A DNA stretch of 62,166 nucleotides, the filler included, from Sphacelaria rigidula (taxonomy: Eukaryota), in assembly GCA_964200075.2 (NCBI GenBank). It is 10 parts of 10 records of this genome, joined end to end, with 100 filler letters (N's around TTAATTAATTAA, not from the genome) between each part and the next. Parts side by side here need not be neighbours in the genome. Positions count along the whole stretch, not along the records: positions 1 to 6,127 come from CAXNAA020022058.1; positions 6,228 to 12,354 come from CAXNAA020022059.1; positions 12,455 to 18,581 come from CAXNAA020022060.1; positions 18,682 to 24,808 come from CAXNAA020022061.1; positions 24,909 to 31,035 come from CAXNAA020022062.1; positions 31,136 to 37,262 come from CAXNAA020022063.1; positions 37,363 to 43,488 come from CAXNAA020022064.1; positions 43,589 to 49,714 come from CAXNAA020022065.1; 2 more parts are not named here. One strand, given 5' to 3'. The position numbers and the translations under genes were made by a program. The stretch's first letter is position 1, and every line of letters starts with the position of its first letter. This document shows positions 5,067 to 60,748 of this stretch, piece after piece. The notes under the pieces are model-generated. The model searched no databases. It saw only the letters and a program-made list of their open reading frames with translations, and was not told where the DNA came from.

Positions 5067-5551
5067 TCATCCTGAGGGTTAGAGGTGGTTAACGACGATG
5101 CTGTAAAACACGCCACTCACTGCGTAAGCCGAGCGACGAGGTTACCGTTTTTTTTGCGATAACCGTGATTGTGTTCGAGCTAGGTCATGTTATTCAGGGT
5201 GGAGAACCTCAAGCCTGCACGAAAGGGATAATCCTAATATGTAGTGTTCGTACGGTGAGAAACCCCTGAGGCAGTGCGTAACCCCTGGCTGTCTCCGGGA
5301 CTGGCAATACCAGAAAACGGAGCAACCTATTTGACGCTGCCTTCCATATGCAAGACCTTTAGTACGCTTTGGGCCGTACCATCTTGTTGGGATGCAGCTC
5401 ACCCTCCATGCGACTCGCCGAATACCTCACGGCAATCTGCGGTTGGTGATTGCGAGCCTGGTCCGGCAAAAACCCCGCGTGCTCCGTCCCGAATTTGTGG
5501 GATGCGAAGTCAATCGTCTACGGCATGCAGACCATGAGCACACACCCCCGC
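5067..5551 (+). mobile_element. C-tailed retroposon family A, copy
   Basis: Aligns by eye with 8069-8496, 25375-25692 and others. Ends CATGAGCACACACCCCC, with a possible 7-bp TSD CCCCCGC (5060-5066 / 5545-5551). Confidence 0.7.
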
Positions 5552-6049
5552 GCGGCCTTTGTCCCTAGTCAGGGACGATGCGGGCCGTTCTCTCGCGTAT
5601 TTCCATGTTTGAGTATTCACGGCCTGTTGCATACGAGGGGAAAATTGGCACTCAAATAGGTCGCCAAAGAATCCAAGCATTTACGTACCGATTGATTGAT
5701 TGATTGATTGACTATCTCACATTTGCTGATTGCAACAACTGAGCCCGTGGTCAGGAGCAGCAAAAATAGAACAGAATAATATAAAATAAAAAAAGAAAGA
5801 AAGGAACAGAAATAGGACAGAAGCAACGGCCTCAGGAAGGAAAGAAAAAACACCACCACCACCAACAACAACAACAACAACAACAACAACAACAACCAAC
5901 AAACAACAAACAACAACACGATACGTATATTGCACTGAAAGTGTCACCATTGCGTTACGGAGGAAAATATCCACCGCTGTACCCCTTTGCTTAAAGGGTC
6001 TTTTGAACGCAGTAAAGCGGTTGCCACGTACAACTGTGGCAATACTTCT

Positions 6050-6127
6050 ACGGTTAGGACAAATCATCACGACTCAAAATCACCAATTCACGGTTTAGTC
6101 GGCGTGATTGCCCAAAAGAGAGAAAAA
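6050..6127 (+). repeat. Dispersed repeat at contig end (second copy at 30950-31030)
   Basis: CGGTTAGGAC.AATCATCACGACT...TTTAGTCGGC.TGATTGCCCAAAAG.GAGAAAAA occurs at the ends of two contigs. Confidence 0.7.
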
Positions 6128-6227
6128 NNNNNNNNNNNNNNNNNNNNNNNNNNNNNNNNNNNNNNNNNNNNTTAATTAATTAANNNNNNNNNNNNNNNNN
6201 NNNNNNNNNNNNNNNNNNNNNNNNNNN
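6128..6227. other. Artificial contig-joining spacer (also 12355-12454, 18582-18681, 24809-24908, 31036-31135, 37263-37362, 43489-43588, 49715-49814, 55941-56040)
   Basis: Identical N44 + TTAATTAATTAA (stop codons in all six frames) + N44 occurs nine times, spaced 6226-6227 bp apart. Confidence 0.98.
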
Positions 6228-6480
6228 TATTATTATCATTATTATTATCATTATTATCATTATTATTATCATTATTATTATCATTATTATTAATATTGTT
6301 GTTGTTGTTGTTGTTGTTGTTGTTGTTGTATTATCGTCATCATTGTTATTATCATCATCATCATTATTATCATCATCATTATTATCATCATCATTATTAT
6401 TATCATTATTATTACCATCATCATCATCATCATCAGTATCATCAGTATCATCATCATCATCATTATCGATAACAATAATA
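6228..6480. repeat. Compound microsatellite (TAT/CAT/GTT)n
   Basis: Direct read of trinucleotide runs. Confidence 0.95.
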
Positions 6481-6740
6481 TTGATTGATTGATTGTCGCA
6501 CTTTAACTGACCCCCCAGGGGTCCATCCGTGGTCTCATGATAGACGTACCCAAGAAAAACGAAACTCAAACACGCCCTGAAAAAAAAGAAGAAACAGAAC
6601 AAAACAAAAAGTCGAACAGAACGACATAGCAGACGAAGTCGTCAAACAATAGAAAAACCTCAACACGAGCAAAGCACAGAAAGAAATGGCCGACCTGAAA
6701 CAAAAAAAGGAAAAGAAGAGGAAAGTAAAGAGCAAATGAA
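6478..6740 (-). mobile_element. (CAAT)n-tailed retroposon-like 3' end, family D (related tails near 5690-5720, 26260-26495, 38750-38830, 48945-48985, 51385-51425)
   Basis: Recurrent GTGCGAC followed by (AATC)n. The 6478 and 26260 copies also share CTTGG.TACGT.TATC and GGGTCAGTTA. Confidence 0.55.
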
Positions 6741-57309: not shown

Positions 57310-57920
57310 GACATTGACGTGTCGACACCCTGAAATACTGAGGATCCCTAACAGGTAGTACCCTGCATACTCTACAGTACTCAGCATTTTCGGCAGACAG
57401 TACTCTGGGTACCCGGAATATTCCGTACATGTACCGAGTATTCCGGGAGACGTATCCAGCTTTTCAGCAGTAATTTTCACCCTCGGTTCTCGGTATATGT
57501 TCATAGTACTCAGGTGACAACAGCGGGTATGTCGGGGGGTAGGTACCGGAGGTACCGTTAGACACCGAGTACTTTCGGGGAATCCGTACTGTGAGTACTC
57601 AGGACATATATTCATTATTCCGATTGAAACAGCGGATGTTCCGGGTAAGAGGTATCCGGGGTACCTCGTTATATTGAGTATTGTCGACAGTATCCGCCGG
57701 GTGCCCGAAGTACTCAATAATCCGGATACCGCACCGGGTATGACGGTAGGTTTTACCCGAGGGAACTTGATGAACTCAGTACCTTGTACTGATGGTACCC
57801 TGAGTACCCTGTGTACCCCGGAGGTACTGAGAAATCCATGATACCCCGAATTACGGTACGTACCCTGCCCTGACCACCATACAAAGAAATGAAAACCGAT
57901 GACGACAATACCGGAATAAC
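57310..57920. repeat. Intronic GTAC/CCGG-motif-rich element (probable non-autonomous DNA transposon)
   Basis: Dense GTACTC, GGTACC and CCGGG motifs in both orientations. Confidence 0.45.
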
Positions 57921-58097
57921 TTTGGAATCGCGCGACACCAAACAGAGAAACGGTCACCGACGTACGGAAAGCCAAAATGACGCCTCTTGCACAACGACAG
58001 CACAATGAGAACAAAGACACGAACGGCAACAGCACCATATGAGAGTAAAGGATGGAAAACAAAAAAAAATGTTTTCTTTTAGTTTCTTCCTCCTCAC

Positions 58098-58151
58098 CAC
58101 ATCGTTGAAGACGTAGAAGTACTCCAGCCTCACGCCGGACTCTTTGCCGAC
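58098..58151 (-). CDS. Tandem PH-domain protein, exon (PH2 start)
   Basis: TTGCAG| VGKESGVRLEYFYVFNDV |GTGAGG, phase 0-0. Confidence 0.7.
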
Positions 58152-59270
58152 CTGCAAGACTCTGAGGGGCCCCTTGTGGATGGTCTCTCGCTTGCCTCCA
58201 CGGATTGCTAATTCCAGAACCTTACAGTTCGCGAATAAAGGAGGAAAAAAAAAAAAACGATGACATTACTCCGACGCGTGGGCATGGATGATAGACCAAC
58301 CTCCCGGATCAACATGGTGCCGAATACAGTCGATGATACACCACAAGGAAAGAAGGTTTTTTGCCCAAAATAATCATTTCCCCTCCCCTTTAGCAAGATA
58401 TCTATGGTGAGGGCTTCGGTTTATTTACCTCGGGCACGTTCGTGCGGTCACCACAGCCGAATTTGTGGCGGACCGACTCATGTTCGACCATCAATGGAAT
58501 AATCAATCATCGATCAATGTGGTGTATGGGGGTCATAAATATATTTACTTCCTCTCTGGTCCGTAAGCCTACTTCGTTACGGGTATTTGGTCGATGGGGA
58601 AAAACAGTGAAGGGTTCCAGTGACGATGCTGAATTCGGGTGTACTTACAAAGGCACAACGCAGACGATGATAGTGCAAAACAATATATATGTATATATAC
58701 ACAAGACGTACGGGACCCGGGGCTGCGCCGCTGCGCCCCGGTCTTGTCCCGTCTTCTTCGACGGTCACGGTATTCTTGCCTTGCCAAGCCCTCGTGAGAA
58801 TAGATTCTCTCTCGAAATGTTCAAAAGTGCTCAGATAGACCATAAAATTTTAGTGTGTGGCATTTGGACGGTGAGGATAACGAGTCTGGTGTCGGAGTTT
58901 TCGAATTCGATGATGGGGCAATACTACAGTGGGCGTGCACTCGCCGACCTGGTCGGGCGGGTTCAGCCCCGGCACATTCATGATGTGTGCTCTGCGGAAG
59001 TCAATCTTGGTCACACGGACATGTTGCGTGGCCCTACCCCCCCCCCTAGGTCGGCCAAGCGGAGTCGATTACCGCTGACAAGTGGAGGCCAAAAGTTCAG
59101 GATTGCGGCGAAAAACAAAACGTCGACCCGAACCGCTATTAATTCACATTTCTTCAGGCGCCTGCAGATGAACCCGCTCGCCTTGAGAAGGGTAATTTTC
59201 TAAAGTGATCGTCGCCATGCCAAACTGAATGGAGAGGGATAGACGGGTCTAAGAGCGTCAAGTATCGCAC

Positions 59271-59393
59271 CTTCATCCACTCCTGCTTGAGAGACGCCGA
59301 CTTGCACGACAAGAGATAGATATGGCCCTTCGTCACCACTCGGAAGATATGCAAGGCTTTCGGTTTGTCCTTGAGGTGACCCACGTTCTCAAC
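59271..59393 (-). CDS. Tandem PH-domain protein, exon (PH1 C-terminal half)
   Basis: TTACAG| VENVGHLKDKPKALHIFRVVTKGHIYLLSCKSASLKQEWMK |GTGCGA, with the PH C-terminal helix Trp. Confidence 0.85.
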
Positions 59394-60748
59394 CTGTAAC
59401 AAAAAAAAACAGGGAAGCAACAAGTTACGTAAATGTTTACAATTAGGAGGGGTGGGGTTGAAAAAAAGAGTACCACCAAGGTGAAAAAAATATGTCGGAA
59501 GGCGGGGGGAAAAGAGAGGAGAAGAGACACGCGTTCGTTCACTCGGGCAAGGCGAAAGAAGCAAAATGAGCAACAAAACGCAATCAGTGGGGAGAGGTCA
59601 GACTTCGCGATTGCTCGTCTTTTTTTACTGATACGAGGATATCGCCCGTACAGAGCAAAACAGACGTTCGGCTCGTCTTTCAGGTATTCGAACACTCCTA
59701 ACATAGAGGTGGAACAAATAAAGAGAGAGGAAGAGTACAAGAAAGGTCATCATATCAACGTCATTTCTCCGCGCGCCCACCCCCCACCCTCCTCCTCCAT
59801 GGGGACGAGTCTGCGGTACTCGTATCGAGGGATTTATCAGCCCATCGTATTCTCCCCGGGTGTTGCATGAGTGCCTAACGATACAGCATGTGTCACGATC
59901 ACCGATCAACCCTTCGACGGCCGGCATAGATTATCTGCTGCATCGGCATCAGTTTCACATGAAAAGATCCAAGCATGAACCACATGGCTCATGCTCGCGG
60001 TGAAGGGGTTCAAGCACTAGACCAGCACCGCCAAAGATACCCGTCGACTTTACTTCGTCCCGCCTTTCCTGTTCACTAATCTACTCAACTGTTTCACCAC
60101 GGAAACCAGAAAAAATGTACATGTTTATATTTCAGGATTTCAAACCACTTCCCCCCCCCAAACTGGCCCATCACACACATACTTCTTCTGCCCAACAGCT
60201 TGGAGCCACCGTGCTCTACAACAAATAGGGGCATCTCCCGCGATAATCCACGATTTTGTTCATCAACTCTTTTGACTGCAGAACATTTACGCCAACATTA
60301 AAGTGCTGGCTACAGAGACATGATAGGTTTGTACGTCACAAAACCAACCGTCAAGGCAGTGAAAAGGAGAAAAAAAGAGATGGAGAGAAGTTGGCATGTG
60401 TGGAATATATGTAGATGATGTGTTCTGTAAGGTATGCGTGTGTGTGTGTGTCGTGTGTTATTATCCCATTTTCAAGGGGGAGGCGTACTCATTTGTTGCT
60501 TGCCTTAAGCCGTGTCCAATCAATCTGTTTTCGTGTCGAAAACGTGCGGTGGAATTGAATTCGCTCGTTTCTGATTCGTCTATACTATCTTTTCGATTCC
60601 GCCGTGCGTTTTCGAGCTGATTTTCTAAAATAAGACATGGCCTTAATCGCTTGACCACGAACAACGCCTCCTTTGCGAGACGTAGCTTCGCGGGGGGGGG
60701 GCAGTAAAGAGCTCAAGTAACCAAATTCCATCCGAGCGCCGTTCTCAC

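Follow-up and report, generated by a model that had tools for sequence, protein, structure and literature searches.

A C-run-associated LINE and its short partner in Sphacelaria rigidula share a predicted folded RNA signal at their 3' ends

Introduction

Why do retroposon copies in the genome of Sphacelaria rigidula stop at a motif that runs into C's? Mammalian L1 primes its poly(A) at TTTT-A, and some LINEs target microsatellites. In the window analyzed here, a stretch of 62,166 nt made of 10 joined contigs of assembly GCA_964200075.2, the initial annotation named five 3' ends of a LINE (B) and six of a second family (A), each followed by a C-run or C-rich tract. All 11 are present; they had been placed on unrelated contigs, and only 6 of the 10 contigs carry them. 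The ends belong to a system made up of the retrotransposon B and a short hitch-hiking partner, A, both of which insert into C-runs and end in C, not in the usual A. This C-tailed pair is real but already on record, as an Ectocarpus pair is catalogued in passages of PMC12477816. Our work adds a predicted folded RNA signal at the end shared by B and A, and many tiny copies that appear to consist of this signal alone.

Results

The genome comprises 244 Mb in 27,214 contigs, and copies of the LINE are about 10% diverged; the B and A copies in the window are listed in Table 1. B is at least about 5.5 kb long, with 63-bp tandem repeats close to its 5' end and one long open reading frame (ORF) for an endonuclease, a reverse transcriptase (RT) and a zinc knuckle. 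Its stop codon begins 8 nt ahead of the element end, leaving a 3' untranslated region (UTR) of 5 nt. Broken copies gave an RVT_1 match with an E-value of 1e−25 and a weak endonuclease match, under the cut-off, of 0.004. For the intact homolog P0003, 72% identical to B, both an endonuclease and an RT domain are precomputed, and in the RT region B shares 66 to 67% identity with Ectocarpus proteins. An RT tree (62/63 rows) groups B with P0003 and the Ectocarpus proteins with support of 100/100; named RTE-X references are absent from this tree, and the clade name is taken from the element descriptions in PMC12477816, whose best blastp matches are RTEX-4_NV and RTEX-1_BF. A PDB search returned L1 and R2 and nothing else. 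With a fixed 3' end, variable 5' truncation, target site duplications (TSDs) of variable length and no LTRs, B has the features of an APE-type non-LTR retrotransposon, including an AP-endonuclease domain ahead of the RT, judging from P0003 and the weak match of B itself. Upstream of the long ORF the consensus is only noisy, and a decayed ORF1 may lie there. We rejected a fixed 5' end of B at window position 18897, which is merely the truncation point of that copy; the copy holds endonuclease and RT remnants, begins directly 3' of a C-run at 18879 and has no 3' end.

Table 1. Copies of families A and B in the window
Feature	Position	Strand	Identity
Family A, old copy, from consensus position 63	5076..5542	+	76%
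Family A, 5'-truncated at position 136	8067..8488	+	
TSD of the preceding A copy, upstream copy, 11 nt, begins with five C	8057..8067	+	
TSD of the same A copy, downstream copy, preceded by three extra C	8492..8502	+	
Family A 3' 150 nt, cut by contig end	12205..12354	-	
Family A 3' unit, 99 nt, begins at internal copy of the 48-nt 5' repeat	12543..12641	-	
Second A copy, from position 261, directly behind C-run of the 99-nt unit	12455..12530	-	
Family A 3' 0.3 kb and C-rich tract	25373..25673	+	
5' end of full-length A, preceded by C-run (55807), cut by contig end	55817..55940	+	
Family A 3' unit, 97 nt	56082..56177	+	
LINE B 3' 1.0 kb (ORF C-terminal region, 3' element), then short C-run	9971..10999	-	90.8% to working consensus
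LINE B, 5'-truncated, four pieces (18899-19636, 19817-20322, 21217-23443, 24089-24288)	18899..24288	+	
LINE B internal fragment, cut by contig end	36854..37262	-	
LINE B 3' 0.4 kb and C-rich tract, directly behind C-run of the 39-nt copy	52254..52634	-	
B 3' insert, 39 nt including own C-run	52634..52672	-	
B mini (3' structured element alone, about 64-74 nt) and C-run	25213..25286	+	
B 3' insert, 32 nt, with C-rich tract	60476..60507	-	

A is non-coding and carries a 48-nt 5' repeat of its own 3' unit; in 30 aligned copies the 5' boundary, at 562 nt, is sharp and the flanks are unrelated. The two families had been aligned over their last ~75 nt. The shared end is confirmed, at a shorter length: BLAST aligns 52 nt at 82.7% identity and finds nothing similar outside the last 52 nt, and a structural match covers the last 67 nt of B and 73 nt of A. 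Of the two roles first proposed for A, the 5' end fixed at 562 nt supports that of a non-autonomous partner to an autonomous LINE, B, and not that of a sister LINE. An Rfam scan of four A loci and one full copy gave no match near any gathering score, whether to the tRNA, 5S or 7SL RNAs that supply the 5' head of a strict-sense SINE or to a ribozyme family. Four contig sets aligned to A were used solely for DNA-like junctions.

Genome-wide, the exact B end motif occurs 4,150 times, with N+CCCC next in 3,103 cases, and the exact A end motif 2,909 times, with N+CCCC next in 1,706; about a quarter of the B ends and 41% of the A ends lack it, and reversed-pattern controls of the motifs yielded 0 occurrences. 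At least 6 C's lie within the next 8 nt at 123/151 B ends and 84/120 A ends (background, 1.0%), in a sample from which ends with short or N-containing flanks had been dropped (6/157 for B, 1/121 for A). The claim that poly(A) never follows holds in substance: NN+AAAA comes next at 3 of the 4,150 B ends, the family for which this genome-wide count was made, which sets B apart from poly(A)-tailed L1-like elements, and none of the 271 sampled B and A ends has at least 6 A's within the next 8 nt. The pure C-run is short, with a median of 5 nt in B and 4 nt in A and a maximum of 28 nt.

A check for TSDs was positive, with duplications in 51 of 224 copies against 4.3% in a shuffled control, in 34 of 224 against 0.8% with a stricter score, and in 29 of 74 against 3.6% for a motif-picked B set. 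The other 173 copies, with their old sequences and uncertain junctions, have no TSD at the threshold. The duplicated target is about 14 nt long and begins with the C-run; 40 of the 51 TSDs start with at least three C's, and 11 start otherwise. Because these 40 begin with a C-run, much of the "tail" is duplicated target. C's do follow the ends, but "tail" was too strong a word: compared with the C-run in the upstream TSD copy, the 3' tract is longer by only 1.5 nt at the median and by 17 nt at most. Among the 40 TSDs, the tract is longer than the upstream run in 22, by more than 3 nt in 13, and no longer in 18, a noisy measure because C-runs slip and decay.

The proposed insertion at C-runs is upheld by the 5' junctions, which have CCCC within 25 nt upstream in 171 of 230 cases against a background of 7.8%. 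Forty of the 230 lie directly after another A or B end, and new copies often insert in the C-runs of older ones. In some copies the consensus seemed to continue past the C-run, as if the run were internal. The sequence beyond actually belongs to another repeat, MITE-like, whose terminus served as target, so the run is not internal to the element; a loose motif of this terminus is matched by 12 of 271 ends, and element-free copies of the repeat, at window positions 12854, 36334 and 36128, already have the C-run. B and A share one end motif, and both go into C-runs that were there beforehand.

For the shared end, the predicted fold is a three-way junction that overlaps the ORF stop, and relatives carry compensatory changes. 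Comparison of A with B shows a difference at 1 of 40 stem positions, with pairing kept, and at 5 of 11 unpaired, equal-length positions (p = 0.001). The z-scores for folding are modest: the last 67 nt of B score −2.4 (−1.1 with CCCC added), the last 71 nt of A, a stretch that lacks two closing-stem bases and folds otherwise, −1.2, and the last 99 nt of A −0.1. Two non-algal relatives have a different minimum free energy fold and mismatches in the closing stem. The stems of B double as coding sequence. We also compared the 3' element by eye with HDV-like, hammerhead and tRNA topologies, none of which fitted.

Of 77 sampled B ends whose 5' junction is visible, 43 are minis of 61 to 70 nt that start at the closing stem of the three-way junction. 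All five LINE-B ends named in the window exist, and three of them are tiny inserts (Table 1, last three rows). A shows no pile-up at its own closing stem (2/112 at 68 to 77 nt), which disfavors a purely structure-intrinsic RT stop. In a relative from animal-like DNA, 4 of 30 copies measure 65 to 71 nt, two of them with identical flanks. This relative keeps the 3' element and carries an (ATT)n tail; CCCC is found at 0 of its 30 ends. Viral contigs yielded no relative. Eighty metagenome loci are mostly distant, and of the 68 whose ends were inspected, most show either a long 3' UTR or no visible tail, stop calls past frameshifts being unreliable. Strong matches of the RNA model are its own members or their close kin; locus L399 gave a marginal match (E = 0.043), and the ORF ends of L136, L142, L144 and L161 gave non-significant ones only (E = 0.12 to 3.3).

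Discussion

We consider it very probable that B is a brown-algal RTE-X-type LINE, that A is its 562-nt non-autonomous partner, and that both move by one mechanism. The B protein would bind the three-way-junction RNA made by the last 67 to 73 nt, and a bottom-strand nick by its endonuclease would leave a primer with G's at its end. [quoted passage not shown] Read-through transcripts would carry C's since every copy adjoins a C-run, and a poly(C) polymerase would therefore be unneeded. The proposed C:G priming fits the junctions.

Alternatively, the RNA could stop at the terminal motif, with all C's coming from a target selected by the endonuclease alone and little or no RNA:DNA pairing. The 18 of 40 TSDs without a longer 3' tract are as this account predicts, but the excess in the other 22, above 3 nt in 13 of them, speaks against it, on a noisy measure, and we regard it as unlikely. 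Much less probable still is a true poly(C) tail, put on the RNA by a nucleotidyltransferase in direct analogy to poly(A). It would account for the runs of up to 28 nt and the excess of up to 17 nt, but not for medians of 4 to 5 nt and 1.5 nt, and the (ATT)n tail of a relative that has this 3' element as well suggests that tails are templated and resemble the target. Reading A as the 3' portion of another autonomous LINE deserves almost no credence: in one frame the 3' end of A resembles, on our own reading, the C-terminal motif of other clade members, but the sharp boundary at 562 nt amid unrelated flanks, the TSDs and the confinement of B similarity to 52 nt argue against this, and full-length copies with TSDs refute it for today's family, which may nevertheless descend from such a LINE.

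In mammalian L1 and microsatellite-targeting LINEs, as in B and A, tail and target are one simple sequence with which the TSD starts. Unlike L1, the Sphacelaria pair has C in place of A, a short tract, and a structured 3' signal in place of relaxed poly(A) recognition.

The initial annotation knew of no described poly(C) equivalent and had made its novelty depend on this. Supplementary Material 3 of PMC12477816 (Dinatale 2025) annotates the RTE-X LINEs of Ectocarpus, together with their partners, with "(C)n 3'" or "(C)n termini/TSD" and with C-rich TSDs, and that claim of novelty is withdrawn. Matched on the published descriptions and on Ectocarpus proteins, B and A appear to be the counterparts of RTEX-1_Ec32/RTEX-2_Ec32 and RTEX-N1_Ec32 of Ectocarpus sp. 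7. The two LINEs (5.5 to 5.9 kb) share with B a single EN-RT ORF, a (C)n 3' end and a C-rich TSD; they come from another genome, and the cited passages contain no junction statistics, priming model, RNA structure or ~66-nt family. RTEX-N1_Ec32 (604 to 607 bp; RTEX-N2_Ec32 has 188 bp) is, like A, a non-autonomous element of about 600 bp with C-rich TSDs, tandem copies, thousands of copies and a 5' head of unknown origin, and its 60-bp 3' end is 83% like the LINE; A differs in its 562-nt length and 48-nt 5' repeat. RTEX-N1_Ec32 totals 2.48 Mb in that source and "Sower" about 2.5 Mb in PMC3145265, and from these near-equal totals we infer that they are the same element.

Stringent SINE/LINE pairs, as treated in the relevant parts of PMC3747384 (Ohshima 2013), have 3' stem-loops in common and short-repeat tails, e.g., (CA)n, (CAA)n and (CCAT)n in green-algal RTEX. 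B and A likewise have a common 3' end that the LINE protein would recognize, whereas those parts of the table list no (C)n tail, and in B the candidate recognition element lies inside the ORF. Our literature search found no description of the three-way junction predicted at the shared end, with its overlap of the ORF stop and the compensatory changes seen among relatives, of an (ATT)n-tailed relative keeping the same 3' element in animal-like DNA, or of the 61- to 70-nt mini class of B.

A broader hypothesis, to which we give slightly less than even chances, is that one conserved three-way-junction RNA of ~66 nt, within the last ~20 ORF codons, serves an RTE-X subclade of brown algae and animal-like hosts as its recognition signal, with exchangeable tail and target: C-runs in brown algae, (ATT)n in the animal-like host and possibly (TC)n in distant members. 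In S. rigidula, excision or protection of the module would yield a discrete RNA of ~66 nt, which would be mobilized alone as a minimal retroposon and make up nearly half of the sampled LINE 3' ends.

In summary, the C-tail is on record, as far as the passages of PMC12477816 extend, solely as a supplement note, and the junction data make G:C-primed target-primed reverse transcription testable in the laboratory model Ectocarpus. The same 3' element with different tails in two close lineages provides a natural experiment on the joint change of tail and endonuclease preference. If the ~66-nt cis element is sufficient, it would be the smallest RNA tag needed by this reverse transcriptase.

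C-run ends and the insertion target

The ten contigs of the window (~6.1 kb each, with spacers between them) come from a 244-Mb assembly of 27,214 contigs. All 11 3' ends listed in the initial annotation were found, each followed by a C-rich tract, although these ends, described as lying on unrelated contigs, are spread over only 6 contigs of the window. Genome-wide, the exact 20-nt end of the LINE family B occurs 4150 times, with any nucleotide plus CCCC next in 3103 cases and any two nucleotides plus AAAA in 3; the exact 21-nt end of its noncoding partner, family A, occurs 2909 times, with one nucleotide plus CCCC next in 1706. 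At the fetched loci, at least 6 C's within the next 8 nt follow 123 of 151 B ends and 84 of 120 A ends, versus a background of 1.0%, and at least 6 A's within that distance follow none of them (7 of 278 fetched ends were left out of this count). The C frequency behind the ends declines from ~0.87 at +1 to ~0.3 at +25, and the uninterrupted C-run has a median length of 4 to 5 nt.

Both flanks are present for 224 of the 278 ends. A target-site duplication (TSD) was detected in 51 of these 224 copies, compared with 4.3% of shuffled pairs; its matched core has a median length of 14 nt and starts with at least three C's in 40/51. CCCC lies within 25 nt of the 5' junction in 171/230 copies (background, 7.8%), and 40/230 5' junctions come after another A or B end. 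A loose motif for the terminus of a MITE-like repeat is matched by 12/271 ends, and the C-run of that terminus occurs insertion-free in the window. Hence, given the CCCC at junctions, the C-starting TSDs and the insertion-free C-run, C-runs are the insertion target of A and B. The 3' tract is longer than the upstream C-run by a median of only 1.5 nt, the excess being no more than 3 nt in 27/40 copies and larger in 13, and the encoded C tail is probably short. If target-primed insertion of L1 is taken as the model, the bottom strand would be nicked beside its G's and reverse transcription would be primed by C:G pairing.

The MITE-like repeat is itself present twice in the window. Its copy at 36.1 kb has terminal inverted repeats containing a G/C run, and its C-runs are A and B insertion targets elsewhere in the genome. 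One copy of a 397-nt repeat splits a long B copy.

Other repeats and open frames in the window
Feature	Window positions	Remarks
MITE-like repeat, ~240 nt	36111-36356; 12642-12879	82% alike, opposite orientations
Dispersed repeat, five copies	9392-9613; 26537-26615; 29719-29837; 39209-39423; 54811-55033	77-86% alike
397-nt repeat, two copies	23679-24075; 36375-36770	88% alike
164-bp tandem array	27380-28020	3.9 copies
Exact 125-bp duplication	50734-50979	Possibly an assembly artefact
Open frame, host-exon-like	3577-4588	Cys-rich, with transmembrane stretch
Open frame, host-exon-like	40177-41007	276 aa

A LINE-partner pair of a catalogued type

The working consensus of B (~40-59 copies per position) has a single open frame of 1385 codons, in which endonuclease, RT and C-terminal CCHC motifs were identified by eye; Pfam searches of two broken copies, with stops read as X, confirmed the RT and, weakly, the endonuclease. 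Homology continues upstream of the frame for at least 1.1 kb, reaching 63-bp tandem repeats, and B is therefore ~5.5 kb long or more. The array, with 3-5 or more repeat copies near the 5' end (loci L063, L064, L069, L074, L078, L081, L082, L085 and L086, upstream part), is a possible promoter. The nearest named homologs of the window RT are Ectocarpus proteins, which points to a brown alga as the most likely host; an intact 1360-aa relative shares 72% identity with B and an identical C-terminal peptide. In other samples, L131 and L394 each finish with the B-type motif followed by a C-run; L394, from a prokaryote MAG record, contains a near-full brown-algal-type LINE. Two Ectocarpus gene models (P0004 and P0067) fuse a B-type RT to a Gypsy-like polyprotein and an ABC transporter, probably insertions taken up into gene models.

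Family A is 562 nt long with an abrupt 5' boundary, and its nucleotides 1-48 recur at 466-513. Similarity to B is confined to the last 52 nt (82.7%), and no Rfam family matches A. Copy lengths peak at full length, which is over-represented through the choice of queries, at 93-102 nt (11/112) and at 297-308 nt (6/112). In contigs from runs of three organisms, C-run loose ends also adjoin the A 3' end, and they occur upstream of the ~100-nt A unit in 3/4 runs. The 297-308-nt copies (e.g., window 12455-12530; L044 position 1609) form a second 5'-end cluster near A position 260, and such 5' ends recur as loose ends in other runs' contigs. At its 5' end, the A consensus (first ~110 nt; L044:1344-1455) could form a four-way junction in which the 3' element's hairpin and first stem strand are used again; its z-score is not significant, and Rfam gave no match.

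In Ectocarpus, RTEX-N1_Ec32 (~600 bp, >6000 copies) shares its 3' end with RTEX-1 and RTEX-2 (PMC12477816). The supplement describes RTEX-1 as 'single EN-RT ORF; (C)n 3'' with a 'C-rich' TSD, RTEX-2 by '(C)n termini/TSD', and RTEX-N1 by '60 bp 3' end 83%', noting that its copies occur in tandem (PMC12477816, Supplementary Material 3). Because this anatomy matches ours, the core finding, a C-ended LINE plus partner, is a fresh instance of a system already catalogued in Ectocarpus; the initial reading of the system stands in part, and novelty is refuted for the core. A Saccharina RTEX-1 is on record, its tail not detailed in that entry (PMC4421812).

The 3' RNA element

Since the B stop codon starts 8 nt from the 3' end, the common 3' region is coding in B. 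The predicted fold of the last 67 nt of B is a three-way junction, in which a closing stem carries two hairpin arms (z = -2.4), and the last 99 nt of A contain the same predicted fold, with a z-score that is not significant. Between A and B, 1/40 stem positions differ, with pairing preserved, and 5/11 equal-length unpaired positions differ; one loop and one linker are also unequal in length.

The RTs sister to the algal ones (support, 98/85) mostly have a similar C-terminal peptide. DNA of such relatives was obtained from eukaryote-like contigs within bacterial and archaeal MAG records; loci on contigs of this kind are L393, L395-L398, L400-L421 [G001], L392, L394 and L399. One record, G001, carries many LINE copies, and its 59 SRCR exon-like matches suggest an animal host, although SRCR alone is no proof. 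These relatives' families retain the 3' element with altered sequence and changed amino acids. In the distal hairpin, 98.6% of alignment cells pair and two pairs are changed on both sides (9 distinct rows); because these rows represent only ~four families, the shuffle control yields no probability. Counting against a kept element, the relatives' closing stems are mismatched and their minimum-energy folds are unlike the algal one. Tails differ as well: among 30 G001 ends examined (of 60 matches), none has CCCC and 24 are rich in A/T, chiefly as (ATT)n. A (TC)n end is seen at four distant metagenome loci whose 3' UTRs are very short (L144, L145, L149 and L151), and the RNA model search gave no significant match to them.

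Minis

Many B copies consist of the structured element alone. From the first 100 listed B motif matches, 94 were fetched (six <75 nt from a contig start were skipped), giving 91 distinct ends, 14 of them censored by an edge or N. Among the remaining 77, copy length is 61-70 nt in 43 (66-67 nt in 20), 41-60 nt in 7 and 71-90 nt in 8. The share of minis is inflated, because only the longest contigs were sampled and contigs tend to break at long copies; such bias does not account for the scarcity at 41-60 nt. TSDs were found in 22/42 minis, and divergence is lower in short B copies than in long ones (5.9% versus 9.7%; n = 57 and 14; P = 0.006). In the Ectocarpus supplement, no family entered as a LINE is <188 bp long (PMC12477816).

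The B closing stem starts 67 nt from the 3' end. We prefer the reading that minis arise from a protein-protected RNA fragment trimmed back to this stem, a reading with roughly even chances of being right. A has no peak matching that of B, and as only B codes there, the origin of minis is perhaps linked to translation. Among the 30 G001 ends, 4 copies are 65-71 nt long, two of them with identical flanks. Minis might instead be a self-amplifying family, which we consider rather unlikely, and an RT stop upon completing the stem is the least likely of the three.

The literature searched, to which Repbase, Dfam and most subscription journals did not belong, yielded no description of the three-way junction, minis or tail exchange. 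As a testable extension beyond the core, we tentatively propose, at slightly less than even chances, that one conserved 3' RNA element may carry exchangeable tails and be mobilised on its own as a ~66-nt unit.
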